Virus record (IMG/VR): IMGVR_UViG_3300033148_004307
Strand: one strand, 5' to 3'
Origin: an uncultured virus (IMG/VR IMGVR_UViG_3300033148_004307)
Lineage: Duplodnaviria; Heunggongvirae; Uroviricota; Caudoviricetes
Length of the DNA stretch: 64,000 nt
A model generated the notes under the pieces. It was given only the letters and a program-made list of their open reading frames with translations, searched no databases and was not told the origin of the DNA. Positions 1 to 47,010 of this stretch are shown one piece after another. Position numbers and translations under genes: made by a program. Every line of letters starts with the position of its first letter. Position 1 is the stretch's first letter.

Positions 1-19
1 GTAATGGAGAGGATTAGAA

Positions 20-547
20 ATGCCACGAATGGAATCATCTGATGGAAAGCGAAAAACATCAGTAAGAGAACATGAGAGGAAAACACAATCAGGAAAATCC
101 ACTACAGTAAAACAACACATAAGGAGATTAAATGGTCGTGTTGAGTTTGATAATATCAAAGATTTAAAAAAATCATTATCAGAAAATCGTTTAAAATCAG
201 AAAAGAAAACACCAAGAATATATGGAAATAAACTTGACGATTCCTTATCAATAAAATATGACTATGAAAATACGGCATCCTATTCAGGACAGAGGAATTA
301 TACATTCTATGCTAGGGATACCGAAACAGATTATAGTGTTGCAATGTTGGAAATAGTTGAGTTTGACGATGAAATATCCATATCTATGATAGAGGTTGAA
401 AAAGAATATCGTGGCAGAAATATAGCTCAAAAACTACTAGAAAACGTAATGGATGAGTTCGAGGTTGATTATGTAGATATACAGTGGGGCTACACAACGG
501 GTTCAGGGGCTATGCTCAAAAAGAAATTAGATAAAATATATTTATAA
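20..547 (+). CDS. Leader-family-1 protein with C-terminal GNAT acetyltransferase domain
   Basis: Shared 37-aa leader; GNAT motif A IEVEKEYRGRNIAQKLL; RBS GGAGAGG. Confidence 0.75.
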   Translation: MPRMESSDGKRKTSVREHERKTQSGKSTTVKQHIRRLNGRVEFDNIKDLKKSLSENRLKSEKKTPRIYGNKLDDSLSIKYDYENTASYSGQRNYTFYARDTETDYSVAMLEIVEFDDEISISMIEVEKEYRGRNIAQKLLENVMDEFEVDYVDIQWGYTTGSGAMLKKKLDKIYL

Positions 548-585
548 ATAGAGATGAAATATGAAAGTAAAGGAGAGGATTAGAA

Positions 586-1869
586 ATGCCAAAGATGGAT
601 TCATTTGATGGAAAGAGAAAAACATCAGTAAGAGAGCATGAAAGGAAAACACAATCAGGAAATACCACTACAGTTAGAAAGCACGATAGAGAATTGAAAA
701 AAGTAGAGGTAGAATTTAAAAATCCATTAGACAATAAGACCGATATAATGCTGATGAATCAAAAAACTATTAATTATTATAAGACTCCCTCTGGAAAAGG
801 TTTTTCTCCATACAAAAAGATAACAGTATTAGATGATGAATATTATGATAAAGAGGCAGATTACAATAGAGGCTATGAATTTATAGAATCACTATTAGAA
901 AGAGGTGGAATAGATTTACAAAATCCAGAAATATATAAAGAAGTATATGATAGTTTAATTGATGCTGGATTTGATGAGAATACTGCTTTACGAGTAAAAG
1001 AACAATTTTCAGAAGAATATAATCGTGATGAAATTCTGAATATGGCAGTAGATGATGAATTTAAGAATAGAATAGAATCAATATCTGGAAAAGTATCAGA
1101 AGATACAATAAATAAGATTAAAGATTATCTAAATGAAGGGGATACAGAAAGTGCAGATGATATTTTAATAGATGTAGAAACAGGAAATTTTGATTTGGTT
1201 AAAATCAATCCTTATGATTATACAGAAGCATTTGAATTAGCAGATATTCTTACAGATTCACATGAAGCAAGAAATCGAGAGGATTTAAAAGAGCAATTAT
1301 TACAGAGAGGGTATGATAAATTCACAGTAAATGATGTAATGAAAGGTATCAAATTTGATGAAATGGTCAGTATGCCTGAACCACTAGAAGATTTAGACAA
1401 AAGTCAAATTGAAGATAGATTGAAAATGTTAAAAGAAAAATATCCAGAAATACGAAAAAGAGATTTTCATGTAATTAATAAGGAATTGGATAAAAATTAT
1501 ATCACTACTGCACAGGACTTATTGAGGGATATGGAAGAATTTTATACTGATAAACCCGATTTAGATAAGAATATAACATGGTTATTTTTAGAAGAACCAG
1601 ATAAAGATGCTTTTAGACATAATATCAGAACAGTTTTTGAACCAAAAGGGGTGGAAGTCGAGAAAAATTATCTTGACAATAAAACTATATTGAAATTATC
1701 TGAAAATATAAGTATGGAAATAGACCCTGTAAGTGAAGAATTTACAATAATGGATAGGAAAAATACAAACAGATTCTTAGAATTTGGTAAATTTGAAACA
1801 TACAGGGATTTAATTAATGCTTATAATAGAAATGCCCCTAAGAAAAATCAAATTAAATATAAAGAGTAG
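586..1869 (+). CDS. Leader-family-1 protein, acidic helical body
   Basis: 427-aa ORF, leader MPKMDSFDGKRKTSVREHERKTQSG...VRKHDR. Confidence 0.85.
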   Translation: MPKMDSFDGKRKTSVREHERKTQSGNTTTVRKHDRELKKVEVEFKNPLDNKTDIMLMNQKTINYYKTPSGKGFSPYKKITVLDDEYYDKEADYNRGYEFIESLLERGGIDLQNPEIYKEVYDSLIDAGFDENTALRVKEQFSEEYNRDEILNMAVDDEFKNRIESISGKVSEDTINKIKDYLNEGDTESADDILIDVETGNFDLVKINPYDYTEAFELADILTDSHEARNREDLKEQLLQRGYDKFTVNDVMKGIKFDEMVSMPEPLEDLDKSQIEDRLKMLKEKYPEIRKRDFHVINKELDKNYITTAQDLLRDMEEFYTDKPDLDKNITWLFLEEPDKDAFRHNIRTVFEPKGVEVEKNYLDNKTILKLSENISMEIDPVSEEFTIMDRKNTNRFLEFGKFETYRDLINAYNRNAPKKNQIKYKE

Positions 1870-1914
1870 TTAGGCACTACATTTATTAATTGAAATGAAA
1901 GGAGAGGATTAGAT

Positions 1915-2880
1915 ATGCCACGAATGGAATCATTTGATGGAAAGAAAAAAACATCAGTAAAGGAACATGAAAGGAAAACAAAATCAGGGAAGAAAACCAC
2001 CGTAAAAAAGCACGATAGAAGATTAAATCCAAAGATGATAAACACATCTAAATTACAATCTATGGTCAGGCTAATAGGTGGGGATGCACATCTAAAAAGC
2101 AGAAAGAACCTAGAAGCAATTGCAGAGGATTGGTTAAAAATAGCTAATGATAAAGATAAAAATGCTATGATAAGAGTGATGCAATTAGATAAATTCCCTT
2201 ATGATGTAGGAGATTTCATTACTGTAAATGAGAAAGATGATGCAATCAGGAAAGGATATAAATTAGATGTGATAACATCACGACCCGACTCATTTAAAAT
2301 CGTAGGTAGAGAATTTCCAGCTATGGAGAGATATAAAGGAATGGAAGTATCAACAGTAGAAGATTCTCCAGATTACATGGGAAAATCTATTGAATTTAAA
2401 GATGGAAGTGAATATCTCATTTTTGATGATTTCGATATGGCAAAATCCGAAGCCTATTCAAAATTGAAAGATGATATAGAAAGAAATCCAAGTAAATATG
2501 ATAGGGATTCACTAATGAGGTCAGTAGATAAAGACGATTTGATAAGAAATTTATACTTCCATATCAAAAGCGATAGAGCATTTTATGATATATTCAAAGA
2601 TGAAGTGAAACCAAAAACCCAAGAACAATGGGATTCACATGAAGATTGGTCGCAATTAAAAGCCAATGAAATCTTTGGAACATCATCAGGTTATGATGAT
2701 TTAGCTAATTATGGAATAGATTGGAAGGAACAAATAGATAGTTGGGAAGTAGCTAATGGCATCATAGGTATTAATGGAGTCCACCAAGTATTGACAGGAA
2801 GAAAGAAAACTAAAGCTGGAGAAATAACAAAATTAAGAAATGGAAAGCACATATATCAAATCAGGATGGAGAGAAAATAG
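1915..2880 (+). CDS. Leader-family-1 protein, unknown body
   Basis: 321-aa ORF with the same leader and RBS. Confidence 0.85.
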   Translation: MPRMESFDGKKKTSVKEHERKTKSGKKTTVKKHDRRLNPKMINTSKLQSMVRLIGGDAHLKSRKNLEAIAEDWLKIANDKDKNAMIRVMQLDKFPYDVGDFITVNEKDDAIRKGYKLDVITSRPDSFKIVGREFPAMERYKGMEVSTVEDSPDYMGKSIEFKDGSEYLIFDDFDMAKSEAYSKLKDDIERNPSKYDRDSLMRSVDKDDLIRNLYFHIKSDRAFYDIFKDEVKPKTQEQWDSHEDWSQLKANEIFGTSSGYDDLANYGIDWKEQIDSWEVANGIIGINGVHQVLTGRKKTKAGEITKLRNGKHIYQIRMERK

Positions 2881-2931
2881 AATGGAAAAGTATTAGGCAC
2901 TACATATTAAAAGTAATGGAGAGGATTAGAA

Positions 2932-3606
2932 ATGCCAAAGTCAGAATCATTTGATGGAAAATGTAAAACTAAAGTAAGAGAACATGAGAGGAAAACACAA
3001 TCAGGAAATACTACTACAGTTAGAAAACATGATAGGACAATCAAATGCGAATCAGAATCAGATATGAGGTTAAATAGAAGTGGTTTTATAAACAGTTTAG
3101 GATGGAAAAAATCTGGTCGTAAAGTAGTAATGCCAAGAAAAGCCGACTCTGAATTATCATCTTTATTGGATGATTTATCAGTAAAATATGGCTTAGTAAG
3201 ACAAAATCTAACTAAAGAAGAATATGACAAAAGGATGTTATATTTGGTACATGAAACTTTAGAAGATGCTAATTATCACACTCCTAATAATAACCTTTTT
3301 GCAGAATTATTAGGTAGACCAGATTTAAAAGGAAGAACAAATTACGATACTGCCCCTAAAACTAAAAGTGGAAAGATAGATTTCGATTCAAAGGAATATG
3401 ATGAATGGTTTAATGAAAACACTATTTATGGAAAGAAATTTGAAGCAATCACATCAGAATTTGAAGGTTCTAATAATCTGGTACATGAACTTAACACCAA
3501 AGCAGAATGGGAAGGAACGAAATCGTTGGATGTAATATTGGATAAAATGAGAAAGGATGGAAGTTGTAAGTTGGCAAATGGAATACAAACATTATTTTAT
3601 GAATAA
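2932..3606 (+). CDS. Leader-family-1 protein, unknown body
   Basis: 224-aa ORF with the same leader and RBS. Confidence 0.85.
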   Translation: MPKSESFDGKCKTKVREHERKTQSGNTTTVRKHDRTIKCESESDMRLNRSGFINSLGWKKSGRKVVMPRKADSELSSLLDDLSVKYGLVRQNLTKEEYDKRMLYLVHETLEDANYHTPNNNLFAELLGRPDLKGRTNYDTAPKTKSGKIDFDSKEYDEWFNENTIYGKKFEAITSEFEGSNNLVHELNTKAEWEGTKSLDVILDKMRKDGSCKLANGIQTLFYE

Positions 3607-3636
3607 TGTTAGAATAGGCACTACAGGAATGATTCA

Positions 3637-3828
3637 ATGGTTAAAAAAAAAACGAATAGAAGTTTAATGGTTCTCGTATTGGTAGTTGGAATCATAGCAT
3701 TTCTTTTATCTCAATTGATTTTGGGAAATATTATTGTCGGAATATCAACATTAATAGAAAATATATCTTCAATTGTGATAAGTGTTGTAATTTCATATCT
3801 CGTAGTTTCGGAATTAAATAAGAAATAA
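3637..3828 (+). CDS. Small two-TM membrane protein
   Basis: Two hydrophobic stretches; follows motif A. Confidence 0.7.
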   Translation: MVKKKTNRSLMVLVLVVGIIAFLLSQLILGNIIVGISTLIENISSIVISVVISYLVVSELNKK

Positions 3829-3987
3829 TCAAATATCGAAAAATAGGCTACGAGAAACCTATCTTAATAGAACGAAAACAGGGAGAGCAATAATATGTAT
3901 CGGGGTGGGGTAAATAGCCTAAATACACCCCTTAAAGCCCTTTATTTATGGTATGAGCATCCATACATACATTTTATTTTTGTTGAA

Positions 3988-4040
3988 TAATGTATACACA
4001 AGTATTTAAACCTATAGCTATTATGATGTATACATTATAG
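3988..4040 (+). promoter_or_regulatory. Archaeal promoter (AAGTATTTAAA) flanked by two TGTATACA palindromes
   Basis: TATA-like box 4000-4010 in a 230-bp gap; TGTATACA at 3991 and 4027. Confidence 0.55.
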
Positions 4041-4059
4041 AGTATTGGGTGGTAATATT

Positions 4060-4452
4060 ATGAAGAATAAATTAATACATATTAAAAAATCGAAATTCAT
4101 AAAAGCACTAAAAAGAGAATTTCATAATGACGAATTTTTTAAAACAAAGGTTGATAAAATAGAGATTGAAGTAAGTAAAACAATAAATGGTAAAAAGACA
4201 ATCACACTAAATGCCTATGGACTTGATTTAAATGAAGAAACCAAAGAATTAAGGAAAGATGAACAAAGAAATCTTGATTACCATAGAAGATTATCATATA
4301 CTTTTATAGAGAAAGAAGAAAAATTAGCTCTGATTTATCATATAATTGCTTTGTTATGCGACCATGAGTTTGATTTAGCAGAATATTGGAACTACATATT
4401 GGAATATCCAGATGAATTAGTAGAATCAGAATACGATGATGATTTTGAATGA
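4060..4452 (+). CDS. Hypothetical protein
   Basis: ATG after GGTGGT RBS. Confidence 0.75.
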   Translation: MKNKLIHIKKSKFIKALKREFHNDEFFKTKVDKIEIEVSKTINGKKTITLNAYGLDLNEETKELRKDEQRNLDYHRRLSYTFIEKEEKLALIYHIIALLCDHEFDLAEYWNYILEYPDELVESEYDDDFE

Positions 4453-4464
4453 GGGGATGATATA

Positions 4465-5164
4465 GTGAATCCAAGAGAAAAATGCCATTCTCCAGAATGT
4501 GATGGTAAAACAGATATGTTTCCTCTATACTCAAGAGGTTATGATAATAAATTTAAAAGAGCAATAAAAGAAAGAATACATGAAAGGACAGGAGAAATAC
4601 AAATTAGTTATGGCTTTATCTGTCCTATCTGTAAGAAAATACATTTTAGAATGAGAAAGAAAAAGTGAAGTTTATAGACCTAGTGATAATTAGGCATTAC
4701 AAATATTATGGTGGTAATATGTCAGATATAATAGATAAAGAATATTTAGTTAAATTAAGAAATTCCAACCCATATTATGAGAAAATTTTTGTAGAACCAA
4801 CAAAAGAAGAATGGGATAAGCTGAATACAACATTGAATGAGAATGGATTGAAATGTTTAGATGGATATTCAGGCAGTATTGGTAGAAGGTCATGGAATAT
4901 GTGTTGTGATAAATTAGAGGAATTAATTAAGGGGGAATAAATATGGACAAAGAACAGGGATTTTTAATTTTACAAGTATACATCATTTTATTCAGTATAT
5001 CATTTTATATGTTTACTGATAATGCAGTATATTTGGTAGTAGGAATGGCAGTATTTATTGGAAATTATTTTGCAAAAGATAGCATAGAAAGGCAGATAAA
5101 AAAGAATGAAGAAAAGGAAAAGTTACTAGGCACTACAGAGGAAGATGAACCAAAGAAAGTGTGA
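4465..5164 (+). other. Three small hypothetical genes (4465-4668 Zn-finger, 4719-4940, 4943-5164 membrane)
   Basis: Abutting ORFs each with RBS. Confidence 0.7.
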
Positions 5165-5201
5165 ACACTAAGGGCTATAAAATGAACAAAAGGGCTAAAA
5201 T

Positions 5202-5723
5202 ATGAACGATGAAATGAATGGCAATAATTATAAATGTGATGTAACAGGAAGTTTGATTATCACAGATAAGATTGGAAAATGGTGTCAATTACCTTATCCA
5301 AATCATAAACATGGATGCCCTAATTACAACAAATCAGAAAGATGCCCACCCAAATCTAAAAAGGTGGATGAAGTTTTTGACCTGAATAAAAATCATTGGT
5401 TCTTATTGTATAGATTTGACATGGGAACACATGAACAAAATATGAAAATAAAACATCCCAAATGGAGTAGAAAACAATGCAGATGTGTTCTTTATTGGCA
5501 AAAAGGAATTAAGAAGAAATTAAAAGATATGTATCTCGAAATGAAGAAAACTGACCCAGAATTAATTTATACAGATATTCCCGAAGCTCTGGGGATTAAT
5601 GTTATCTCTACAATCAAAAGGAACTTTTCAATACCAATAGATGTGAAACCAGATGCAGTAATATTCAAAGTATCTATGGTAGGGTATCCTATTACAAATT
5701 ATAAGCAAAGTAAATTAATGTAA
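5202..5723 (+). CDS. Predicted metal-binding protein, DUF2284-like
   Basis: C-x-PYP-x4-GCPNY-x5-CPP and late PEALGINV motif. Confidence 0.55.
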   Translation: MNDEMNGNNYKCDVTGSLIITDKIGKWCQLPYPNHKHGCPNYNKSERCPPKSKKVDEVFDLNKNHWFLLYRFDMGTHEQNMKIKHPKWSRKQCRCVLYWQKGIKKKLKDMYLEMKKTDPELIYTDIPEALGINVISTIKRNFSIPIDVKPDAVIFKVSMVGYPITNYKQSKLM

Positions 5724-5741
5724 ATTATTAAGGAATTTAAA

Positions 5742-6032
5742 ATGTGCGATAAATTAAATTATGAAATATTAACACTACCAGATGGTAAACAAATATTGGT
5801 AGACGGTTGTCTTTTAGAAGCTCTAAAGATTATCAATAATATGAGGGATTTTACTACTTTGGGATGTTGTTGTGGTCATGGGGTTTACAAAAAAAGTATC
5901 ATCATTCAAAATAAAATTGACAATAGAATATTTGAATATTATAATCAAGTTGAGATAAATAGGAAGAATAGATTTTATAAAATGGATAAGAATGGTTATT
6001 ATTTCTTACCAGAATTAGAATTAAATGGATAA
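5742..6032 (+). CDS. Small conserved viral protein with D-x-C...T-x-GCCCGHG motif
   Basis: Motif resembles the TYW3-like N-terminal signature; function unknown. Confidence 0.45.
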   Translation: MCDKLNYEILTLPDGKQILVDGCLLEALKIINNMRDFTTLGCCCGHGVYKKSIIIQNKIDNRIFEYYNQVEINRKNRFYKMDKNGYYFLPELELNG

Positions 6033-6047
6033 TAAATAAGAGGGAAT

Positions 6048-6269
6048 ATGAATATCAATATTATAGAATATATCGCCACAACTCTTAGCATAATCGGTTC
6101 GATTTATGTAGCTAGGATGGACATTAAGGGCTTTTATCTATGGTTATTAGCCAACATCTTATGGATTGTATTTGGAGTAGTGAACCTACTCTATGGAGTC
6201 ATTACGACCTTTGTATGTTTTGAAATCACTACTATATATGGATTGATTAATTGGAAGAAATCAAAATGA
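6048..6269 (+). CDS. Small three-TM protein, PnuC-like
   Basis: GFYLWLLANILW pattern, three hydrophobic helices. Confidence 0.5.
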   Translation: MNINIIEYIATTLSIIGSIYVARMDIKGFYLWLLANILWIVFGVVNLLYGVITTFVCFEITTIYGLINWKKSK

Positions 6270-6276
6270 GGATAAT

Positions 6277-6423
6277 ATGGATTTAGTACACGCAATAGCA
6301 AATTGTGAAGAATGTAGCTGGACTTGTGGATATTTAAATTCTCTGTTATTAGCTGGAAAACACCATAAAAAAACAAAACACAGAGTTCATGTTGAATTGG
6401 GATATAGTCATACTATTGGATAA
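6277..6423 (+). CDS. C2H2 zinc-finger microprotein (48 aa, absent from ORF track)
   Basis: Manual translation MDLVHAIANCEECSW...GKHHKKTKH; RBS GAGG. Confidence 0.65.
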   Translation: MDLVHAIANCEECSWTCGYLNSLLLAGKHHKKTKHRVHVELGYSHTIG

Positions 6424-6623
6424 CAAGTTGGTGGATTTATGAGTGGATGTATATGTGGTGGTCAACACCAATTAAAAGAATGGACAGATGAAGAAATTAG
6501 CAAACATATCGAAGATTCTATGGATGGTAGTTGCATTGATTGTTGGTGTGGTACGCCATTCAGAGTAAAAAATAAAGAAAACAATGGATAACAAATTGGG
6601 TTCATTGTAACAGAGGGATAAAT

Positions 6624-7031
6624 ATGGGTACATATAATGATATTGAAGTAATGGAAATAAAATGCAAATGTGGGGATATTCTAACTATTCATGGGGATTG
6701 GTATGAATGTGAAAATATAGAAGAATGTGGAAAACAAATATTTGGATTCGATAGGTTAGATGAATACATAAATAATATGGAATTTCTCTACTGCGATAGA
6801 TGTATGAGTGAAAGAATCCAAATACATGAAAAAGGAAGATGGGATTGTGTAGATTGTGATGATGAGGGGGATGTTAGACAATTAATAGAACATAACAATC
6901 CAAAAGCAGTAAAATGTAATCTATGTAAAAAAAGATTCAAATGTACTTACCAAATATGCGATATTACAAATCTTGGATGCAAAGAATATGAAAATGAATA
7001 TCATAAAAAAACCGATATTGAAGATTTATAA
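6624..7031 (+). CDS. Cys-rich multi zinc-ribbon protein
   Basis: Several CxC/CxxC pairs; follows motif B. Confidence 0.7.
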   Translation: MGTYNDIEVMEIKCKCGDILTIHGDWYECENIEECGKQIFGFDRLDEYINNMEFLYCDRCMSERIQIHEKGRWDCVDCDDEGDVRQLIEHNNPKAVKCNLCKKRFKCTYQICDITNLGCKEYENEYHKKTDIEDL

Positions 7032-7158
7032 CAGGAGAGAATACATTAATTGTTAGTGTAAACGTAGGGGGTTTTTGTTCTAGGCGTACTAACCCACTTC
7101 GGCATTTATAACAAAATGTATGGATAATTAATTGGTGTGAATGTAACAGAGGGATAAT

Positions 7159-7680
7159 ATGAATGAAGATAAAATAAAATGTAAAAAATGTGGTAATGAA
7201 TACGAATGTTTCTGTGAACATTGTGGTAAAGAATTTAAAGATTGTAATTGTGATGATTTCTATAGTGATAGTCAATGGATATGTACTGATTGCGATTTAG
7301 ATTTAGCCAAGAATTGTAAGCAATATGGTTCATGTGAAGATTTTGATTTATGCCCATGTAAGCATTATGGTAATATGAATAACATATATGAAAAGAATGA
7401 AAAGTTCCGACAAAAGATTGGAAAACAGTTAAAAGAAGATTTCATTCAACCCAATATGAATGAATTTGAAAAGAGAATGGAGAAACTAATGGAAGAAAGG
7501 GAAATAAGAGAATCTATAATCTGCCCTTATTGTTCAAGTAAACAAGATAATGATGATAATCAATATCCTGTAACTTATTGGGGGGATGAAGGGGATGTTG
7601 ATTACGATTGTCTTAATTGCGAAAAAACATTCTTAGTAACTGAAAAAGTTACTAGAGAATATGAAACAAGTGAAAAATAA
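7159..7680 (+). CDS. Cys-rich multi zinc-ribbon protein
   Basis: Many CxxC; C-terminal CPYC...CLNC ribbon; follows motif B. Confidence 0.7.
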   Translation: MNEDKIKCKKCGNEYECFCEHCGKEFKDCNCDDFYSDSQWICTDCDLDLAKNCKQYGSCEDFDLCPCKHYGNMNNIYEKNEKFRQKIGKQLKEDFIQPNMNEFEKRMEKLMEEREIRESIICPYCSSKQDNDDNQYPVTYWGDEGDVDYDCLNCEKTFLVTEKVTREYETSEK

Positions 7681-7731
7681 TGATGAAATAAAGGAGAGTT
7701 ATTATATGGTCAATAGGAACAGAGGGATAAT

Positions 7732-7920
7732 ATGAAGAAAATTATGAAAACAAAAGAAATAATAATGACGAAAACCCCAAAAGCTACTTATGATGAATCA
7801 GGGGGAGAAATTAAATATTATTTAGTAGAGATAGATAAAGAAATATCAGAATTATTAGAAATAACCAATAAAACATTATTAGAAGTATCTATTAGAAAGA
7901 TTCTCCAAGTGGAAGAATAA
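7732..7920 (+). CDS. AbrB-like small DNA-binding protein
   Basis: YYLVEIDKEISELLEI...LLEVSIRK swapped-hairpin pattern. Confidence 0.45.
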   Translation: MKKIMKTKEIIMTKTPKATYDESGGEIKYYLVEIDKEISELLEITNKTLLEVSIRKILQVEE

Positions 7921-7933
7921 ACAGAGAGATATT

Positions 7934-8390
7934 ATGGAAGAAAATATTGCTGAAGTCGGAGTAGTATGTTATGATGAATTACGATTAGCTGGAAAGAAAT
8001 GGATAAAGAAAGATATTAAAGACCTAGCCAAATTAGACAACATCACTATTAAAGAAGCTAAAAAGAAATATAAAACATACATAAACAGATGGCTAAAAAG
8101 ATTCTGTTTAGATGAAAAAGCATTAAAATAATCGTATAACAAAATGGGTAATAGTTATGACCATAATAAAAATTTCTAAGAATAAAGCTAAAATTTATTG
8201 TAATATTTGTAATAATAAAGTAACTGTTGGTTTGGACAAAACTGATAATGAATTTTGGGAAATACCAGATGATTGGCAATATGTACTCACAGAAAATAAA
8301 CCAAACACAATACATATTTGTCCAAAACATAAAATTGAATTTTCCCAATTTGTCAAAGAATATATAGAATGGGCAAAAGATAAAAGTTAG
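7934..8390 (+). other. Two small hypothetical genes (7934-8131; 8157-8390 Zn-finger)
   Basis: ORF track, RBS. Confidence 0.65.
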
Positions 8391-11536: not shown

Positions 11537-12040
11537 ATGCCGAAAGAACCACTAATGGAAGATGAATTTCAAAGAATCCTAAATTCATGCGAAAATGAAT
11601 TTGAAAAACAAACAATATTGATTTTAAGATACACAGGGATGCACATATCAGTTATTTGTGATAAAGAAAATGAATACGATATAGCATTTAAAGGTAAATA
11701 TATACATTGGTATAGACCAAAAACACATAATTTAGTAAGAATCCCAATACACCCAATCATTAAGCCATTCATCAAAGAATATTTTGAAAATGAGAGGGCT
11801 ATGTATAGAAATTATTACAATCGAATGATAACAGAAATAGGGAAAAGAGCAGAAATAGAAGGATTATCCCCTATGAGTTTTAGACATACTTTCGGAGTGG
11901 CATTATTGGATGAAGGGTACACAATGACTCAAGTACAAACAATGATGGGAGTAACAGATTTACAAGTGATTACAAGATATACTCAATACTCTGATAGACA
12001 AATGGAAGCAAAATGGAAAGATACAGGATGGTTAGAATGA
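11537..12040 (+). CDS. Tyrosine recombinase-like protein, catalytic domain only, atypical active site
   Basis: LRYTGMHISV, RPKT, MSFRHTFG, VQTMMGV-x5-ITRY. Confidence 0.85.
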   Translation: MPKEPLMEDEFQRILNSCENEFEKQTILILRYTGMHISVICDKENEYDIAFKGKYIHWYRPKTHNLVRIPIHPIIKPFIKEYFENERAMYRNYYNRMITEIGKRAEIEGLSPMSFRHTFGVALLDEGYTMTQVQTMMGVTDLQVITRYTQYSDRQMEAKWKDTGWLE

Positions 12041-12329: not shown

Positions 12330-13106
12330 ATGGTAACACACATCAGAATAAAAGAAAAAGATAGAGAAACAATCCAATCAATTAAATTATTAGATGAAAA
12401 TGATAAAGATTTTTTATCAAGAATAATAAAAGAAAAAAAAAGAGAATTAGAATCTAATGATAATAATATGTATGAACTAGATGAAGAAATATATTATGGA
12501 TGTATAGATTCAATTCACAATCTTATCGAAAAGTATGGAACTAAAAAAATAAAGTCATTATTAGTCAGGGATTTAAAAATTTATTCTAGTATTGATAGTA
12601 AAGATGTTTTAAAATATGGTATGAATTTCAATGCAATAGGACAATCAAGCATTAAAAAATTAAAAAATGCCCATATATCAAAAACAATTGTGAATAAAAT
12701 AGAAATGGAAGTAGAATTAAACGAATCGGAAAAATCAGTATTACATGATAATGGATTAGAATTGGTCTATAGTCAAAAGAGATTTTCATTTGTTAGGGTA
12801 TATAGTGGAAAAACTGACAAAAGGATGGAGAATTTAGAACTAGCCAATAAGAACAATCCTAAAAAAATAGAAATAGAGCAAATAAAAGTGGATAAAGAAA
12901 CACTTGAGAAAGTAAGAATCTTCATTATGAAATGTATAAACAATAAAAATCACACATTACAGGGAATGGCATTAAGTGGTTTAATACAGAAAGGAAAAGA
13001 GAATGGAATAGACAAAACTATTATTAAAAAAGTATTGGGGAATTTATTATATAAAAGTATTATAACTGAACATAAGAAATTCAAATATAAAATAGTACCA
13101 GATTAG
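12330..13106 (+). CDS. Multi-module protein sharing a central domain with 58105-58758
   Basis: RHH-like N-terminus, shared domain, wHTH-like C-terminus. Confidence 0.65.
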   Translation: MVTHIRIKEKDRETIQSIKLLDENDKDFLSRIIKEKKRELESNDNNMYELDEEIYYGCIDSIHNLIEKYGTKKIKSLLVRDLKIYSSIDSKDVLKYGMNFNAIGQSSIKKLKNAHISKTIVNKIEMEVELNESEKSVLHDNGLELVYSQKRFSFVRVYSGKTDKRMENLELANKNNPKKIEIEQIKVDKETLEKVRIFIMKCINNKNHTLQGMALSGLIQKGKENGIDKTIIKKVLGNLLYKSIITEHKKFKYKIVPD

Positions 13107-13130
13107 GCACTACAATAAGGAGAAATTAAT

Positions 13131-13488: not shown

Positions 13489-13851
13489 ATGAAGATTAAT
13501 GATTATGGAATTGATGAAAAAGAAGAATACTATATAGACATTCACACAGAGGATAAAGAGGATGAAAAATATTTAGAATTAATGAACAATCTCAAAGAAG
13601 GTACAAAATGCGATTTATTATTGGTTCAATACGAAGAAGGATTCTCATTTCACATGAAAAATAGAAAAAATAATAATAGTTCTATAGAAATTGAAGTACC
13701 AGAAATGATTGAAAATCATCTCAAATATTTAGAAAAAAATGGATATGGTTCTGTAAGTGAAATAATACTGTCAAGTGGAATGATTGGAAATATCATAGAT
13801 ATTTATAATATGGTTAGACAGGAAGAAATAAGGGAAAATAATACTGATTAA
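13489..13851 (+). CDS. Hypothetical protein with C-terminal RHH-like module
   Basis: C-terminus paralogous to 22639-22818. Confidence 0.6.
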   Translation: MKINDYGIDEKEEYYIDIHTEDKEDEKYLELMNNLKEGTKCDLLLVQYEEGFSFHMKNRKNNNSSIEIEVPEMIENHLKYLEKNGYGSVSEIILSSGMIGNIIDIYNMVRQEEIRENNTD

Positions 13852-13890
13852 TGGATAACAATAGTGGGTAATAGTAACAGATGTGGTAAT

Positions 13891-15135
13891 ATGGCAAATA
13901 AAAAACAAGTGAAAAATATAAGTATATTTGAAAAAATATTAAAGAAGATGGACATTGAAGGTGGGAATAAAGAAGATTATGTCAAGATAGCAAAACATGA
14001 TATTTTCGGTGGTGGGAAAATCAATATTACACTTGGTGGAATGGGTACAGGAAAATGCAATATGTTAATTGGTATGGCTACAGAATTAGTAAAATCAACA
14101 GGATTTGAAGTCATTACTAATATCGGATTGAGTAAAAAATTAAGGTCTAGGAAAATCCACGATACTAATTGGTTTTCAGATATGTTGAGAATTATATGTA
14201 GAAATAAAATAGCCAATCTACATAGAAGTGAAAAGGAAAAAAGAATAATTGTTTTAATGATAGATGAATCTGAACCATTTTTCTACTATAGAGGGAAAGT
14301 AGTAGATATAAATTTATTGAATAATTTTGCTAGGAAATTTGATTGTTCTTTCACTTTCATATTACATAGGGCAGAGGATTTACCAGAGGAAATAAAGAAT
14401 AATCCTAACCTGAATTGCTTTATTCTTAAAGGGTATGATAGCAATTTAAATGAGATAAACACAACGATTGAAATAGATGGGGAAGAAAAAACAGATATTA
14501 AAAAATTAAATAGAATACGAAAAAGAGCAAAATTTTATTTTAGACCCATCAATACAGAAATAAATATTAATGGCATACCAGAATGTGAATATTATGATTT
14601 TGAAGAATACTCACATTTTGTAATTCAAGATGTAAATCATATTGAAAAATCAGTAAATCTTGATAAGATATTAGAAATATCTATGAATAATAAATCTTAT
14701 GTTGCCCCACGAAAAATAATAGAATATCTTGAAAAAGATTGGGTCTATGCTAGATATAAAATAGAGGATATAAGATGCCCAGATTATAATGAAGATGTAT
14801 TTGCAGAATGGGGAATAAGTAGATGTGGGGCTATAAAAGATTCAAAAATATTGAATTATTCTTGTAATATATTATTATCAAATTATAAATGCCCCAGAAA
14901 GAAAAGTATGAAAAAACTATTGTATGAAAGTTTAACAGGAAGAAAAATAACATCCCCATATAAAATATGTGGAAAAGAAGAAATAATATTGGAAAAGATA
15001 TTGATGGAATTATCTAAAGAAAAAAAAGATACAAAGAAAATCAAAGAATTAATTGACAATCTGGGAATATTTTATTATGGTAATGAAAAAATCATTAAAT
15101 TATCTGAAACATTAGAAATAAAACAAGAAAAGTAG
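13891..15135 (+). CDS. P-loop ATPase (viral extrusion/Zot-like class possible)
   Basis: Walker A GGMGTGKC, VITN strand, Walker B VLMIDE. Confidence 0.7.
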   Translation: MANKKQVKNISIFEKILKKMDIEGGNKEDYVKIAKHDIFGGGKINITLGGMGTGKCNMLIGMATELVKSTGFEVITNIGLSKKLRSRKIHDTNWFSDMLRIICRNKIANLHRSEKEKRIIVLMIDESEPFFYYRGKVVDINLLNNFARKFDCSFTFILHRAEDLPEEIKNNPNLNCFILKGYDSNLNEINTTIEIDGEEKTDIKKLNRIRKRAKFYFRPINTEININGIPECEYYDFEEYSHFVIQDVNHIEKSVNLDKILEISMNNKSYVAPRKIIEYLEKDWVYARYKIEDIRCPDYNEDVFAEWGISRCGAIKDSKILNYSCNILLSNYKCPRKKSMKKLLYESLTGRKITSPYKICGKEEIILEKILMELSKEKKDTKKIKELIDNLGIFYYGNEKIIKLSETLEIKQEK

Positions 15136-16418: not shown

Positions 16419-16832
16419 AATGAAAGAAAGTTATGAGAGAATTAAAGAATTACATCTAAATTATGAAGGATTATCAAATAGGGAGAAATTATTATTCCTA
16501 AATAAAACAGGATTAAAGGAGAAATAACTAGGCACTACATGGTGGTAATATGGAACAAAAAGAATTAATTAATAAATTTATAAAATATTTAAAATTCTAT
16601 CACAGATTAGATTTAAAAGAGGTCGAGATAACTGATTCTAGGGGCTATTGGAGAATAATAAAAGAATGTAAGGGGGAATGTAGAGAGGGTCATAGACAAC
16701 CGATTAATCACACTATTTATTATGTAGATGGTGGTAGAGATTCAAAAGGTAGATTTGAAACCCCCTATAAAACATGGAAATTAATCAAATCAATGGATAA
16801 CAAACGAGGGCAATAGTAACAAAGGTGGTAAT

Positions 16833-17030
16833 ATGGTAGAATTTGACTTTAAATTTGATGATAGAAATAGGATTTACATTCCAAAATATTTACATGGCAC
16901 ATTCAATACTAAAGAAATAAAGGGTTTAGCGACACCAGATTTATTATTGCTTTATCCAGAAGGTATATCAAAGGACAGATTAATTAAAAATGTTGAATTG
17001 TTATTAATGCAAATAGAACTTGAAAAATAA
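16833..17030 (+). CDS. AbrB/MazE-like DNA-binding protein
   Basis: FDDRNRIYIPK signature. Confidence 0.6.
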   Translation: MVEFDFKFDDRNRIYIPKYLHGTFNTKEIKGLATPDLLLLYPEGISKDRLIKNVELLLMQIELEK

Positions 17031-17055
17031 ATATATGGATAACAGATGTGGTAAT

Positions 17056-17592
17056 ATGAAAGATGGATATTTACAGATGAAACAAAAGGAATTAAATGAA
17101 GATATGGAGAAATTAGAATCTAAAATGAAAGAACACAATACAGAAATCCAATCATTGTATAAGAAAATAACAGATAAATTAGATAAATATTATGATTTGA
17201 TGAAGCCATTGTTAGATTCAATTGATTTAATAACTGAATACAAAAATTCCATAGAGGAAATATTTGATAGAAAAATAATAGAGAAAGTTAATGAAGGGGT
17301 AGCCCAGATAACCAATAATGCAAAAGAAACATTCAATCAAGCAGTAGAATTTTTAGAGAAAAAAAATAATAATTTTTTATCAGATATTTCTAATCAGTTC
17401 AGTAAAAGCTACGATGAGAATTGGATTAAAATTAATGATGAAATTAAAAGTTATTTTGAATTAAATCAAATTAATCATCAAGCAATAATTAATGAAATTT
17501 GTGAAAAGACAAATATAACTTTAGATAAAGGAATTAAACTAACAGATAAACAAGCATTAAAGAAAGCTAAAAAAGAAGGATTAATTAATTAG
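17056..17592 (+). CDS. Coiled-coil protein, paralog of 47475-48089
   Basis: GYLQMK-x-KEL...KLDKYYDLMKP shared. Confidence 0.75.
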   Translation: MKDGYLQMKQKELNEDMEKLESKMKEHNTEIQSLYKKITDKLDKYYDLMKPLLDSIDLITEYKNSIEEIFDRKIIEKVNEGVAQITNNAKETFNQAVEFLEKKNNNFLSDISNQFSKSYDENWIKINDEIKSYFELNQINHQAIINEICEKTNITLDKGIKLTDKQALKKAKKEGLIN

Positions 17593-17617
17593 GCACTACA
17601 ATTAAGAAGATGGTAAT

Positions 17618-18283
17618 ATGGTTAAAAATAAATTAAATATCGATAGAAGTGAAAAAAAGATAGACGATGTATTTGATATTATTTTAGCTAACACAGAACT
17701 ATCTGAGGTATCAAAAAAGATATTAAAAAATGATGCCCAGAATTTAAGTAAAAAAATTGGAAAAAATATAAGAGAAAAATGGACTATTGGAAGGGTAGCA
17801 TTAAAATTAGCGTGTGATAAAAATTCATGTGCTTTAAAAATTCATGTACCATTCAAACATTTGCAAACAGGCAGAAAGATATGTGGTATAAAATCAAGAG
17901 TATATCCAGAGCAATATCTTGATGCCCAAATATCAGTATTAAAAAATTATTTTGGTTGCATTAAATATGACAATAGGAGAATAGTATTGGACAATGTAAG
18001 GAATTGGGCAATCAAGCAAATGAAAGAATTAGAAGAAAATCCATTAAGTATAAATTATAGCCCTCTGAGTATATCTTTATCATTCATTTATCTTGGATTA
18101 ATAAAGTATGAGTTTGCAGAAGCACAATCATCATTAGGTAGCATATTTAACGTAGAATATCAAACAATTGGTAGAATTTCAAGAGATTTGATAACAAGAT
18201 ATGGGTATGATAAAACAAAATGGCATAAAAAATATCATGGACTTGATAATTTAGGCACTACAGATGGTGGTAATTGTGAATGA
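17618..18283 (+). CDS. TFIIB/TFB-like cyclin-fold protein
   Basis: SPLSISLSFIYL...Q-x2-LG-x2-FNV-x3-TIGRISRDL resembles TFB second cyclin repeat and HTH. Confidence 0.6.
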   Translation: MVKNKLNIDRSEKKIDDVFDIILANTELSEVSKKILKNDAQNLSKKIGKNIREKWTIGRVALKLACDKNSCALKIHVPFKHLQTGRKICGIKSRVYPEQYLDAQISVLKNYFGCIKYDNRRIVLDNVRNWAIKQMKELEENPLSINYSPLSISLSFIYLGLIKYEFAEAQSSLGSIFNVEYQTIGRISRDLITRYGYDKTKWHKKYHGLDNLGTTDGGNCE

Positions 18284-21200
18284 AGATAAACCATATCCAG
18301 AATTGGAATATACAATAGTGATAGTAGTACCAAGAAAAAACTCATTAAAATCAGAATGTAATAAAAATAGTGTCCATATAAAAAGAAGGATTAACGTACA
18401 TCTACAGGGTGTAGGATTTTTTATGAGAATTATTGCAGATTCAAAAGGAAAAGAGATAGCAGAGAAATATATGGATACAAAATTAAAATGGGAATTAAGA
18501 TAACAAAATGGTGGAAATATGTGGCAAGATTTAGTAGATAAAGAAGAAAAATACATTGGTGGGAAATTAATAGAATATCCAGATAGTATAGGAAAAGCAC
18601 TAGGATATAAAATTGAAGAAACAACAATTACAGGATTCTCATTAACAGATGAATGGTTCGAAGTTAAAGGTAAAGATTTTAATTGTGGTGGTTCAAGAGA
18701 ACACTTAGGGGTTATGAACAATCAAAAAGAAAAGGGATTGGTAATAAGTGGATTCGGTGGACAATTATTTCAAATAATTGAAAAAGAAATAGGCACTACA
18801 TAAAGGTGGTTAATGTGGTAAAAGAAATTACAAATTATTTGTGTGAATATTGCGATAGTGGATATGACACTAGAAAAGAAGCTGAAATATGTGAAAAGGA
18901 ATGTATCATACTTCGCACTACAATTAAAGATGAAAGCAAGTCAGATTTAAAAAAAGAATTACCAGAATTGACAAAGATACAGAAAGAAATTATAGATTTC
19001 TGGAATACAAGAGGATATGAAAATATTACTCATACATTAGGAATGAATATTAGATTACATTTGAAAGATAAATATGTTCCTAATGGATTGGATTTAATTT
19101 ATTTAGAGCAATTCTATAATTTAGCAAAGAAAGACATTCAAAAAGACAAATATCAATGTGAAAAATGTAAAGGTACAACCTTCAAAATAAAAAAGAATGA
19201 TGATGAACATAAAATGGATTATATTTGTTCTAATTGTGGAATTGTTTGTGTTGAATATTATTATTAATGGATAACAAAGAGGGATAATAAAATGGTCAAG
19301 TGTCCAAATTGCCAAATAGATAGGGAAAAAATATCTGGTAATTATAGATTTGAAAAACAATATTCAAGAGGTAATGGCTATTATAGGTGTAGTTGGTGTG
19401 GTTATGTAATCAAAGATAATGACATTATAGAGAAAATAAACAATGAATATCATGGATAACAAAATGGTGTAATAGTAACAGATGTGGTAATATGGTATAT
19501 GGATTTACAATTATAGAACATGGAGAATTTACAAAGAAGATGTATGCACTATTCAATGAATACATCTTTTTCAATGCAGATAAATTATGGGAAAAAGCTG
19601 GAATACATGGCATACTTCATAATAGCGAGGGATTTATCTGTGGTCAAATAACAGATGAATTAGAAAAGGGATTAAAATATTTTAAAGATAATGAAAATGA
19701 ACTAAGAAAATTAATTCCAAGTAAAAGCGAATCAGATTATGATACTGCTTACAATTATTTAAAAGAAATAACAGAGAATTGCTTGAAATATTATGGATGT
19801 ATAATTAAAATACAACGTAATTAGGCACTACATAAGGTGGTAATATGTCAGATGAAAATTTAATCAATGGAAAACCAGAATCTAATGATTTAACAGGATG
19901 GATTGAATGGGCAGAATCAATTGATGGAAATCCTGAAGGGGAATGTGCATCAGAATGGGAAAACTCTGGTGGGCAATATGAAATAGAGTTGGTAACAACA
20001 GATTATGTTCTATCTTTATTGGATGAAGTTAGAAAAATGAATCTCGATACAGAGGGATTCATAAAGAAAATAAAACATCCTTACGATTAAAGCAAATAGA
20101 TAACAGATGTGGTAAAAATGGAGAAAGATTACGAGAAATGCAAGAGATATACAGGAGATAATATTTGTGATATAGCCCATCCACATATTAGTTATTGTGA
20201 TGTGAATAGGAATAATTTACAATGTCCAGAAAGCATGAAACCATCAAAGGATATTGAAGATTCAGAAAGAAATAACCAGATACTTATAGAATTAAAACTC
20301 AGAATCGGAATCAGGATGCTAGAGAGAATTGAAAGAATACTTACAACAAAAGCTGGACATTATGAGGATGTGAACGAATTTATAATTGATTCAATAAGAC
20401 ATAGTTTTAGTGATATTGATAATAAATAGGCACTACAGGATGATATTATGGTCAGAGTAAATAAAGATGGAAATATGAAGATTAAGAATGTTCAGGAACT
20501 AATTATATCAAAAGGTGGACATTTGACAATAATAAAAGATAAAACTACTGATTTTTACCAAAAACATCAATGGAATAAATTGGAAATATCAAACGAATAA
20601 TCAAGATAACAATGGTGGTAATATGGATAAAGAAGAAATGGAATGGCTTAAAGGGGCTATATGTGGGGTTATTGCTGGAATATTAACAGGAGTAGCTATT
20701 TATTTTACTATGAATGGATTTTAATGGTGGTATTATGAGTTTCATATTAGAATGTCAGAATAATAAATGCAATCTCAAACAATATTACATTAAGACAGAT
20801 GAAAAAACAGAGAAAACACTTCAAAGGATGGCATCAAAGGGGGTAGGTATGTGTCATAAATGCCAATCTAAAGTGTTATTCAAGATAATCAAATTCAAAA
20901 CACTATTAGAATTAACTAGATTATTCCCAAATAAGAAGGTAATTTATACAAAATTAGAAGAAAAAGAATTATTAAATTTAGATGTAGATTTGGATAGATT
21001 ACCTTATGTAACAGATAAAGCCGAAATAGAGGGAGATATAGCACTTCAAAAATGAAGGTGGTATTATGCTAAGATTTCAATGTTATTGCGATTACAGGGA
21101 AGTAAAAGGGGAATTAGAAGGAATAGAGATAGATATGGAATACAAAGGAAAAGGAATATTTCAATGTCCTAAATGCAATAGAGAGGAAAACCTACTTGAA

Positions 21201-29017: not shown

Positions 29018-30409
29018 ATGAGTTATTTTAGAGTAAAGAAAATAAAGAAGCATGGGAATATTTACACTTACTATTATCTGGTCGAAGGTTATCGAGATAA
29101 AGAAGGAAAGGTAAAGCAAAGAGTATTGGAATATTATGGCACTAATAAACCAGAAGGATATAAACCAAAAGGAAAGAAGAAAATGAAAGTCAAAGTAGGC
29201 ACTACAAAGAAAAAAGAACCAATCAAGAGAACTGAACTAACAGATGAAGAATCAGATTTCTTAGAAGAAACGATTGATGATGATAATGAAGAATTTAAAG
29301 ACCAAATGAAAGAAGAAATTGATGATTTGAAATATGAAATGAAAGAAGAAATTGAGGATGTATTTGAAGGACTCAAAGAATCCTGTAAAGAAGAATTAGA
29401 TTATCTCAAAGACCAATTTAAAGATAAAGAAATTGACAAAGATTGTTATGAGGAAGAAAAAGAAGCACACAAACAAGCACTTAAAGATGATATTGTATCA
29501 GAAAGGGATAGAATCAAAGAAGAATATCAAGAATCCTTCCAAGAAATTAAAGATAAATATAAAGATAAATTGGAAGAAAGAAGAAAGGAATTGAAACAAG
29601 AAATCTTAGATGGTAAACACGAAGAACAAATGACTAGAGAAAATAAAGAGATGGAAAAAGAATATGAAGAACGACAGAAAGCACAATCAAAAGATATACT
29701 AGGCACTACAAAAGAAGTTAGTTTTAAGGATTTAAACGATAAAGAAAAATTAGTATTGGCAGAGCTTGAAGAATCAGCAAAAGAACAGGGATATGATTTC
29801 GGAATTACAGAGGATGTAGATGGAAAGAAATTAGGAATGACAGGAAAACAAATATCAGGATACATTAGCCAATTAGTACAAAAAGGATATATACAATCAT
29901 ATCCAGAGGATAAACAAAAGGGATTCACACAATTTGAGTTCAATGATAAATATTGGATGGCAAAGGCAAAACAAAGAACCCCACTAACATCCCCAATAGA
30001 GTATTGGGAGAATCAAATTGAAGAATTGAAAGAGGAATCAGATAAGTATGGGAAAAAGGAAGTAAGGATAAGATTACCAGAGGCAAAACGTATTAAAAAA
30101 TTGTTAGACTCTGGAAAACCACCAATCAATGAGGGTCAAAAACCAAAAGGATTCGATAAACTGTGGAAAGAGGGGATTAAGAAATATCCAGAATTAGAAT
30201 ATGTTACACATATTAACATCAAACCTAGTAAAGAAATGTTAGGTGGATTGGGATTAGCTAATGTCGATTTTTCTGGAAATAGAGTTGAATTTAATATCAA
30301 TGAAGAAATCAAAACACCTGAATCAATAATGCAACAATTTGAACATGAATCTAAGCACATTAAAGAATACATCGTAGGAAAAGAAATAACACATAAAAGA
30401 AGATACTAG
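29018..30409 (+). CDS. Leader-family-2 modular protein: beta-rich N-domain, acidic coiled coil, wHTH, HExxH domain
   Basis: YYYLV-x3-R-x3-GKVKQ-x4-YYG; QISGYISQLVQKGYI; FEHESKH. Confidence 0.75.
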   Translation: MSYFRVKKIKKHGNIYTYYYLVEGYRDKEGKVKQRVLEYYGTNKPEGYKPKGKKKMKVKVGTTKKKEPIKRTELTDEESDFLEETIDDDNEEFKDQMKEEIDDLKYEMKEEIEDVFEGLKESCKEELDYLKDQFKDKEIDKDCYEEEKEAHKQALKDDIVSERDRIKEEYQESFQEIKDKYKDKLEERRKELKQEILDGKHEEQMTRENKEMEKEYEERQKAQSKDILGTTKEVSFKDLNDKEKLVLAELEESAKEQGYDFGITEDVDGKKLGMTGKQISGYISQLVQKGYIQSYPEDKQKGFTQFEFNDKYWMAKAKQRTPLTSPIEYWENQIEELKEESDKYGKKEVRIRLPEAKRIKKLLDSGKPPINEGQKPKGFDKLWKEGIKKYPELEYVTHINIKPSKEMLGGLGLANVDFSGNRVEFNINEEIKTPESIMQQFEHESKHIKEYIVGKEITHKRRY

Positions 30410-30435
30410 GCACTACACTTTAGGAAGGGAATGTT

Positions 30436-33378: not shown

Positions 33379-33779
33379 CTGTTCGGTCTTATATAATTCT
33401 GGTTACTGTTCGGTCTTTTTACTGTTCGGTCTTTTTTTACTGTTCGGTCTTTTTAGCATCTGGATAACTGTTCGGTCTTTTTTACTGTTCGGTCTTTTTT
33501 TACTGTTCGGTCTTTTTAGCATCTGGGTACTGTTCGGTCTTTTAGCATCTGGATAACTGTTCGGTCTTTTTTACTGTTCGGTCTTTTTACTGTTCGGTCT
33601 TTTTTACTGTTCGGTCTTTTTAGCATCTGGGTACTGTTCGGTCTTTTTAGCATCTGGATAACTGTTCGGTCTTTTTTACTGTTCGGTCTTTTTACTGTTC
33701 GGTCTTTTTAGCATCTGGATAACTGTTCGGTCTTTTTTACTGTTCGGTCTTTTTACTGTTCGGTCTTTTTACTGTTCGG
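33379..33779. repeat. Iteron-like array: 20 copies of ACTGTTCGGTCT(T)n with six AGCATCTGG(AT/GT)A inserts
   Basis: Directly visible; ends about 60 bp before the Rep-like start. Confidence 0.95.
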
Positions 33780-46421: not shown

Positions 46422-47010
46422 TTATTATGTTGAATGAAGTAATTGAATCATGGGAAAATCTGAAAGATAGAATACTGACTCATAGGAGAAATTGTACCGA
46501 TTGGGCAGATGGGGATGATTGTTATGATTGCCATAAGGGAACTATATCTCTAGTTGAGAATGAATTAAACATCAGATTCAAAGAATTGATATTGATAAAA
46601 TAGACTAGGCACTACAGGGTTGATAAAATGATTGAAGCAAATAAACTAAAAATGAAATTCATTAAAGGATTTATAATTGGTGGTGGTATTCCTATTGCAA
46701 CATTATTAACCTATCCAAATATATCTACCATACATCTTTTAATAATATGTAATTTATCCGTTTTAATAGCGATTCCATACTTATATCATTCAATTAAAAA
46801 ATTAGTAATCAATGGATAACAAAGGTGGTCTTATGGATGTAGTTGGAAATACAATATCTGATGTAATAAATAAATTACAAGAGAAAAGTCTAACTGAAAA
46901 TGAAATTTATAATTGTTGTTTGGCATTAAAACATATTAAGAGTCAATTAAAGAAATTACTATAAAAAGAAATGGATAACAAAGTGAATACATTGTAACAA
47001 AGGTGGTAAT

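Follow-up and report, generated by a model that had tools for sequence, protein, structure and literature searches.

What does a short basic leader do when one element attaches it to a series of proteins that otherwise have nothing in common? The question is raised by positions 20 to 3,606 of a 64,000-nucleotide (nt) stretch of DNA from an uncultured virus (IMG/VR record IMGVR_UViG_3300033148_004307). We call the whole stretch analysed the window. Here, four tandem genes start with a common basic leader of 37 residues and continue into unrelated bodies. An earlier reading of the bare letters (the sequence-only reading) had taken this leader for a sorting or DNA-tethering tag that loads variable cargo into virions or onto transferred DNA. 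We find that the leader is a real module, i.e., it is selected as a peptide, it sits on unrelated bodies and its core recurs both in a DNA-capping family of phage proteins and in polyvalent-type phage proteins. This recurrence is indirect support for the tag. Our preferred explanation, held tentatively and at somewhat less than an even chance, is that the leader is a portable tag keeping the fused protein on or next to packaged or transferred DNA. The binding to DNA as well as the delivery of the bodies and their effector nature we infer. The parts of the array are listed in the following.

20..547, + strand: gene 1, 175 residues; leader, short acidic linker and probable small GNAT acetyltransferase (from the list of open reading frames (ORFs) and Pfam)
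586..1869, + strand: gene 2, 427 residues; leader and acidic orphan body (isoelectric point (pI) 4.6, net charge -30)
1915..2880, + strand: gene 3, 321 residues; leader and orphan body
2932..3606, + strand: gene 4, 224 residues; leader and orphan body
20..130, + strand: leader of gene 1, 37 codons, net charge +7 (from the alignment)
586..696, + strand: leader of gene 2 (from the alignment)
1915..2025, + strand: leader of gene 3 (from the alignment)
2932..3042, + strand: leader of gene 4 (from the alignment)
6..24, + strand: common ribosome-binding block, GGAGAGGATTAGAA plus ATGCC, 5' of gene 1 (exact pattern match)
572..590, + strand: common ribosome-binding block 5' of gene 2 (pattern match)
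1901..1919, + strand: common ribosome-binding block 5' of gene 3 (pattern match, 1 mismatch)
2918..2936, + strand: common ribosome-binding block 5' of gene 4 (pattern match)
1871..1881, + strand: TAGGCACTACA gene-start motif 5' of gene 3 (pattern match)
2894..2904, + strand: TAGGCACTACA gene-start motif 5' of gene 4 (pattern match)
3615..3625, + strand: TAGGCACTACA motif between gene 4 and the next, leaderless gene, marking the end of the array (pattern match)

The description on which the sequence-only reading was built is confirmed. About 37 first residues of the four proteins align gap-free with 22 of 40 columns invariant, and each leader carries the V-x2-H-x-R repeat twice (VREHER and VKKHDR, or variants). 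Past the leader the bodies cannot be aligned, and the best blastp expectation value (E) among them is 0.69. The same boundary is visible at the DNA level, where the four copies are 88-100% identical in the 17 nt that precede the ATG, 73-83% in the 108 nt of the leader and 23-32% in the 108 nt that follow. Between the leader copies, the synonymous divergence (dS) is 0.47-1.35 and the ratio of nonsynonymous to synonymous divergence (dN/dS) is 0.15-0.40. That is, the leaders are old duplicates that were kept alike at the protein level, with no recent gene conversion. The leader is under purifying selection as a peptide module and is no by-product of recent duplication.

These numbers also bear on the idea that the nucleic acid itself is what matters, i.e., that the conserved stretch serves translation initiation or regulation as a common cassette, or recombination as a site at which bodies are swapped, with the peptide being incidental. 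The copies do have exact runs of 16-36 nt in common, and the upstream block of 14-17 nt (88-100% identity) is better kept than the synonymous sites of the leader. The idea is contradicted by the dN/dS values as well as by the same peptide core being encoded in unrelated high-GC DNA elsewhere, and we regard it as very improbable. The more specific suggestion that the conserved DNA is a swap point for bodies has no support: 35-63% of the synonymous sites differ between the four copies, among which no case of recent exchange is visible. The upstream block is probably selected separately as a translation-initiation context in its own right. The 19-mer GGAGAGGATTAGAAATGCC has four occurrences (at most one mismatch) in the 64 kb, all of them 5' of the four genes, while 0.03 are expected from shuffled sequence. 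Sites of GGAGAGGA, which is related to the block, precede a few other genes of the element. A scan of positions 1-4200 for sigma-70 promoters and terminators yielded sites no commoner than in shuffles. For positions 1-4000 neither a sequencing run nor an RNA data set is listed. A likeness of the leader's first residues to ribosomal protein bL35 was considered and dropped, since no ribosomal family is found in Pfam even at E≤1.

With regard to the bodies, one of the four can be recognised. The gene 1 body is probably a small GNAT acetyltransferase, judged from a weak profile match to PF00583 (E 8.5e-5, 23.2 bits, cut-off 20.7). Five further GNAT models score below their own cut-offs, e.g., PF14542 with 24.4 versus 30 bits, which is also precomputed in the database record of the gene 1 protein. 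The GNAT assignment of the sequence-only reading is thus kept at this strength. A homology search with the gene 1 body found nothing except the body itself. The bodies of genes 2-4 have no match in Pfam, PHROG or NCBIfam nor, by sequence, among the solved structures in the PDB at a useful E-value. Gene 3 has near-identical and 90%-identical orthologues on other short contigs.

Structure prediction, which had been proposed as a check on the bodies, could be carried through for three of them with poor results throughout. The AlphaFold2 (AF2) model of gene 1 was computed from an alignment of 4 rows and reaches a predicted local distance difference test score (pLDDT) of 54.6. A Foldseek search of the PDB with this low-confidence model gave 0 matches at E≤1e-3 and a few GNATs among the weak rows. 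The ESM Atlas, tried with the bodies of genes 2 and 3, offered no usable match, and its models of the two have predicted template modelling scores (pTM) of 0.27 and 0.26. That the cargo serves anti-defence or host takeover is therefore unproven, the weak GNAT being the sole recognisable body.

How far does the leader reach beyond the window? We built a profile from the four window leaders and searched it against 1.84 billion representative proteins, which resulted in 18 matches at E≤1e-3, of which 10 reach E≤1e-10. The close-family matches are all N-terminal. Full MP[RK]xESFDGK leaders are found on other bodies in P0002, P0003/P0007, P0008, P0009, P0010 and P0011, such that the leader is carried by at least 10 mutually unrelated close-family bodies. 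The bodies are hence not homologous along their length, and the leader does occur on cargo other than that of the four genes, two points on which the sequence-only reading could have failed. According to blastp and clustering, the ten close-family bodies have one exception to their mutual unrelatedness. P0003 and P0008 have a 61-residue module in common (E 4e-8), placed at unequal distances from the leader, which shows that bodies are rebuilt from modules. The repeat protein P0019 reaches E 9.8e-4 with the leader profile; its match looks spurious and it was left out of the members.

The database records also speak to the expectation of more copies upstream of the window. P0002, P0009, P0010, P0077 (orthologue of P0003) and P0078 (orthologue of P0008) are all recorded on one contig of 78,015 bases. 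The same contig is given for the proteins of genes 1, 2 and 4 as well as for a protein identical to that of gene 3. We infer that this contig is the window's own, in which case the array would comprise at least nine leader genes, five of them outside the window. Because gene 1 begins at base 20, the five are most simply placed upstream. The expectation of more copies upstream thereby has indirect support. Other collections added little. IMG/VR holds no relative of the leader (0 of 112 pattern matches confirmed), and scans of metagenomes and genomes with the leader profile returned only distant loci with the core motif. A genome match in L005 was treated as chance, as it covers 12 residues only, inside an unrelated ORF of 196 residues. 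Among GenBank phages, neither blastn of window positions 1-8000 nor tblastn of the 40-residue leader or of P0024 gave a match.

The weaker matches of the leader profile, together with a second search using an alignment of 21 members, define a core that is wider than the close family. Its consensus is V-[RK]-x-H-x-R-[KRQ]-T-x-S-G-K-x3-V-[RK]-x-H-x-R, and of the 7,996 candidates scored in the second search, 70 proteins reach E≤1. Over the 21 aligned members H18, R20, G25 and V30 never vary, and V15, H33 and R35 hardly do. In the leaders, a family-specific MP[RK]xESFDGK cap is followed by two T-x-V-[RK]-x-H-x-R strands around a K-T-x-S-G-K turn. We speak of an HxR module wherever V-[RK]-x-H-x-R, a turn of 4-6 residues with S/G-G-K and a second V-[RK]-x-H-x-R follow each other; the four window genes have it and score 58-63 bits with the hairpin profile. 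The motif is covered by no Pfam model, NCBIfam run with the four window proteins does not describe it, and the leader profile has no match by sequence among PDB chains. The core thus appears to be a small undescribed module.

The 78 proteins compared are distributed over four groups. The close family accounts for 16, another 45 have one core motif inside the first 15 residues, 10 have one internal copy (including the spurious-looking P0019) and 7 have two or three copies. The last group consists of six multi-domain proteins with 2-3 cores each and of P0030, whose single motif is read in two overlapping registers. Clustering by body divides the N-terminally tagged proteins, of which 60 have usable bodies, into 24 body clusters, 10 of them close-family. 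The core is found in elements of very different type and GC content. In the high-GC elements L001 (1816-2220) and L003 (about 661-729), which are probably actinobacterial, small proteins starting with MTEVRRHQRQTASGKTTTVRQHER directly follow a gene for a large P-loop ATPase (AAA_22 is weak, 22.5 bits, under its cut-off); they belong to one conserved family, which has 23 members or more.

Charge offers an explanation that needs no localisation. In all 10 close-family members examined, the leader has a net charge of +4 to +9 and the body a pI of 4.5-5.9. Such a pairing would suit a tag for stability, folding or dosage, e.g., a degron, a handle for chaperones or a basic tail that is autoinhibitory and neutralises the acidity of the body. 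We think this quite unlikely: H and R are strictly kept at alternate positions on both strands, which suggests a defined binding face, and the hairpins in tail completion proteins and between domains, described below, sit in quite different charge contexts.

The most informative occurrence of the core is in tail completion proteins. Six hairpin proteins match Phage_tail_S (PF05069) and four of the six also HK97-gp10_like (PF04883). In them the hairpin is an internal insertion between the conserved HE[YF]G and P-x-R-x-F. One of the genes stands behind a prohead protease, a large ORF and a gp6-type connector; the large ORF has no Pfam match and, from its position, is presumably the capsid gene. 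Among homologues from four cultured viruses, two strands of the type [VI]-K-[EA]-H-x-R can be seen by eye at the same site in three, i.e., in Methanocaldococcus fervens tailed virus 1 and Acinetobacter phage 5W (both with longer loops) and in Elizabethkingia phage TCUEAP3. The homologue of Brevundimonas phage Strzyga is without the two-strand motif, and TCUEAP3 is the only one of the four to pass the hairpin profile. In the tail-completion-like protein of Methanocaldococcus fervens tailed virus 1, an archaeal virus (L053, 5812-6348), the two V-K-x-H-x-R strands are parted by a long lysine-rich loop, KKPKSKKGKKGKKGMTKKKDK.

We also modelled a metagenomic tail completion protein with AF2 (six-row alignment, mean pLDDT 66.8). 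Here, the motif is predicted to be a beta-hairpin (strands 93-105 and 111-123), and no other part of the model is as confident (pLDDT 83-85). Foldseek against the PDB gave nothing at E≤1e-3. The top structural match is chain P of the SaPI1/80alpha neck (root-mean-square deviation 3.0 over 100 of 109 residues) with a Z-score of 8.0, a level which the aligner warns can be common; the match agrees with the Pfam assignment. The length of chain P fits residues 7-115 of gp51. In the passages of the neck study that concern it (bioRxiv 10.1101/2024.12.10.627806), 80alpha gp51 is described as equivalent to lambda gpZ, HK97 gp10 and SPP1 gp16.1 and as a monomer within the neck. It turns a positive face to the DNA, and residues of its extended loop stack onto the last base pair of the packaged DNA, capping its end. 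The N-terminal strands of three tape measure proteins join its own beta-hairpin in a sheet, and lambda gpZ has an extra beta domain at this apex (same passages).

In the AF2 model the HxR hairpin sits between the family beta-hairpin and the C-terminal helix, a place at which it would be the stretch that caps DNA in gp51. With a profile made from the six hairpin-bearing tail completion proteins, the four window proteins are found at E 1e-10 to 5e-9; the hairpin profile alone gives scores as high. Outside the hairpin the window proteins have no Pfam match to the tail completion family.

The second setting is provided by polyvalent-type phage proteins. On a 101.5-kb IMG/VR phage contig (L006/L043), a protein of 896 residues without known domain carries four hairpins. 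The adjacent gene encodes InPase (84-203), a hairpin (about 216-238) and RadC/JAB (274-383), and it is followed by a ParB gene and then by a gene for an SNF2 helicase of 1,235 residues.

L006, 1037-10563: polyvalent-type cluster of the 896-residue protein, InPase-hairpin-RadC/JAB, ParB and SNF2 helicase

P0018 has the order hairpin, weak GNAT-like stretch (15.3 bits, under the cut-off), hairpin and SAM lyase (PF23780). InPase is presented in the relevant passages of Iyer et al. 2017 (PMC5512222) as a domain of polyvalent proteins that are likely packaged in the virion, at times linked to GNAT.

The hairpin is self-contained, it tolerates N-terminal, inter-domain and loop sites and it spans unrelated sequences and GC contents, which favours a very general ligand. 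Since it is found in a protein at the DNA end and between the domains of supposedly packaged proteins, DNA or the DNA-filled lumen of neck or tail is the best candidate for this ligand. Under the tethering explanation, the basic, predicted beta-hairpin would hold its protein on or beside the DNA that the element packages or transfers, and the variable acidic bodies would enter the next cell together with this DNA. The array would thus encode at least nine payload proteins, each in a gene of its own, and be the split-gene counterpart of a phage polyvalent protein. Docking might alternatively be achieved by strand pairing, as with the N-termini of tape measure proteins.

Several observations weigh against this explanation. 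No capsid, portal, terminase, protease or tail gene is recognised among the 60 ORFs of at least 100 residues in the 64-kb window (Pfam or PHROGs at E≤1e-3), such that the element may be a plasmid. The tail completion profile, too, finds nothing in the window besides the four leaders. In the AF2 model of gene 1 (4-row alignment), the leader is no hairpin at all, its residues 15-23 forming a helix at a pLDDT of about 50-59. The link to DNA capping combines a structural match at a possibly common level with an equation of hairpin and capping stretch taken from the order of secondary-structure elements, not from superposition. Furthermore, the hairpin is present in 1 of 37 InPase loci and is hence no general feature of polyvalent proteins, and two high-GC clusters of N-terminally tagged proteins (23 and 8 members) each represent one conserved family and not a set of swapped bodies.

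The lack of recognised virion genes would be less troublesome if the hairpin worked inside the infected cell. Its ligand might be one that every host has (chromosomal DNA, RNA, the ribosome or a conserved hub protein), and effector bodies would be concentrated there, without any packaging or co-transfer. A core kept across very different GC contents and element types fits such a universal ligand. This intracellular targeting leaves unexplained why the same hairpin lies inside a virion-internal tail completion protein and between the domains of polyvalent-type phage proteins, and we judge it unlikely, if worth keeping in mind. Tethering to packaged or transferred DNA is what we prefer. Its strongest form is that the HxR hairpin is a universal tag for riding with the DNA, derived from or common with the DNA-capping loop of tail completion proteins, and that bacterial phages, polyvalent proteins and a probable archaeal element all make use of it. 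Its carriers, placed in the tail lumen or where the DNA ends, would be first into the next host, with the nine-gene array supplying first-strike proteins. In this generality the claim is doubtful.

What else does the element contain? The GC content of the window is about 29%, and its genes lie on the + strand with few exceptions. Most of its proteins are orphans; recognisable are two HNH endonucleases, a DUF5131 protein, a primase-like C-terminus and a DUF7845 protein. An ORF of 167 residues (11537-12040) matches tyrosine recombinases in their C-terminal catalytic part only, its best NCBIfam match being archaeal XerA (52 bits versus a cut-off of 220), and may be what is left of an integrase that was truncated or split. 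Hints at the host disagree. The sole plasmid match of the DUF7845 protein is a haloarchaeal winged-helix protein, and the primase C-terminus resembles those of human-gut phages and a Clostridium phage. An archaeal origin of the element is thus possible; that it is an archaeal virus, as the sequence-only reading had assumed, is unproven given these hints and the virion-gene scan. IMG/VR has no relative of the window primase or of the DUF7845 protein, and three large window proteins have no match by sequence among solved structures.

The TAGGCACTACA motif of the array recurs throughout the window. With at most one mismatch we count 59 sites, 58 of them on the + strand, where 0.43 are expected (e.g., 1871-1881, 13104-13114, 30407-30417 and 56926-56936). 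Most genes have it 5-25 nt ahead of their ribosome site and ATG, and the TAG of the motif often doubles as the stop codon of the gene before. The motif looks like a per-gene start signal, which could be recognised as a promoter by a dedicated polymerase or be a site of RNA processing. We take it to resemble the promoters of single-subunit phage RNA polymerases of the SP6/K11 type. A second upstream element, ATGGATAACAA, about 10 nt, GTAACAGA and GGTGGTAATATG, stands before about eight genes (6567-6627, 13834-13894, 16776-16836, 19435-19495, 46954-47014, 50049-50109 and others) and may mark a second regulatory class.

At 33379-33779 there are about 25 copies of ACTGTTCGGTCTTTTT, partly arranged in super-repeats of 27, 61 and 105 nt. 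The repeats coincide with a collapse of GC and AT skew (32-34 kb) and lie directly upstream of the DUF7845 / winged-helix gene (33843-35432). Array and gene are probably a replication origin with its initiator. Another short basic strand-rich module on differing bodies is the N-terminus common to a 490-residue protein and a 792-residue primase-like protein (30436-30621 and 54550-54735). Their first 60 residues are 61% identical (E 3e-18, MSYIR[YF]K..KYYYQ.K.VR.G.KV.QKHIKYWGT) and the rest is unlike. Finally, a two-gene module is present twice, 30 kb apart (17020-18283 and 47454-49011), the copies being about 73% identical at the nucleotide level over 213 and 300 nt.

If the leader is a delivery or DNA-anchoring tag, the hairpin profile becomes a search handle for proteins that are sent into new hosts and that are mostly unclassifiable orphans. 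It would also link polymorphic internal proteins, polyvalent proteins and the DNA-capping tail completion protein, which have so far been treated apart. A tag of 25-37 residues that loads foreign proteins beside packaged DNA would, like the T4 tag, be a tool for phage engineering.

Which known system, then, does the array resemble? The capsid targeting sequence (CTS) of phage T4 is much shorter than the leader, about 10 residues, is not basic and is removed by the head protease. The tag of the window differs from it in being a basic, predicted hairpin of 37 residues (+4 to +9) that also occurs internally and is common to unrelated elements. The likeness is in the gene anatomy, i.e., a short conserved N-terminal tag on diverse, fast-evolving and unrelated small proteins that are encoded side by side; as far as the passages on the T4 tag go, the CTS-tagged internal proteins counter host defence and are delivered with the DNA (PMC3012670). 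The same anatomy would be expected if the leader were a cleavable propeptide of the T4 kind, which docks its protein to the scaffold or core during head assembly and is then cut off by the maturation protease. We hold this to be improbable. Neither a prohead or head protease nor a scaffold is recognised in the window, a scaffold-specific signal should co-vary with the capsid and yet the core is common to unrelated elements, and the internal copies (between domains or in the loop of a neck protein) cannot be N-terminal propeptides.

The tail completion family (lambda gpZ, HK97 gp10, SPP1 gp16.1, 80alpha gp51; PF04883 / PF05069) is similar through a subfamily with a V-x-V-[RK]-E-H-x-R ... V-[RK]-A-H-x-R hairpin. 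In contrast to the window, where the hairpin is N-terminal, it is internal there, and nothing else is in common.

Polyvalent proteins (Iyer, Burroughs, Anand, de Souza and Aravind 2017, PMC5512222) are similar in that a mobile element deploys many unrelated effector-type domains together, with GNAT among the InPase-linked domains in the passages concerned. The hairpin core between InPase and RadC/JAB, and its four copies in the adjoining 896-residue protein, add to this likeness. The bodies of the window are, in contrast, separate genes with a tag copy each and not one polypeptide. With regard to a definition by at least two unrelated effector-type domains per polypeptide, the window genes do not qualify as polyvalent, whereas InPase plus RadC/JAB of L006 does. 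The hairpin is not mentioned in the passages of PMC5512222 examined, a statement that does not extend to its supplementary File S2, where an LPD domain may include it. The window genes are members of neither the T4 CTS nor the polyvalent system. By analogy, the T4 CTS is the closest known system in anatomy, and polyvalent proteins are the closest in content.

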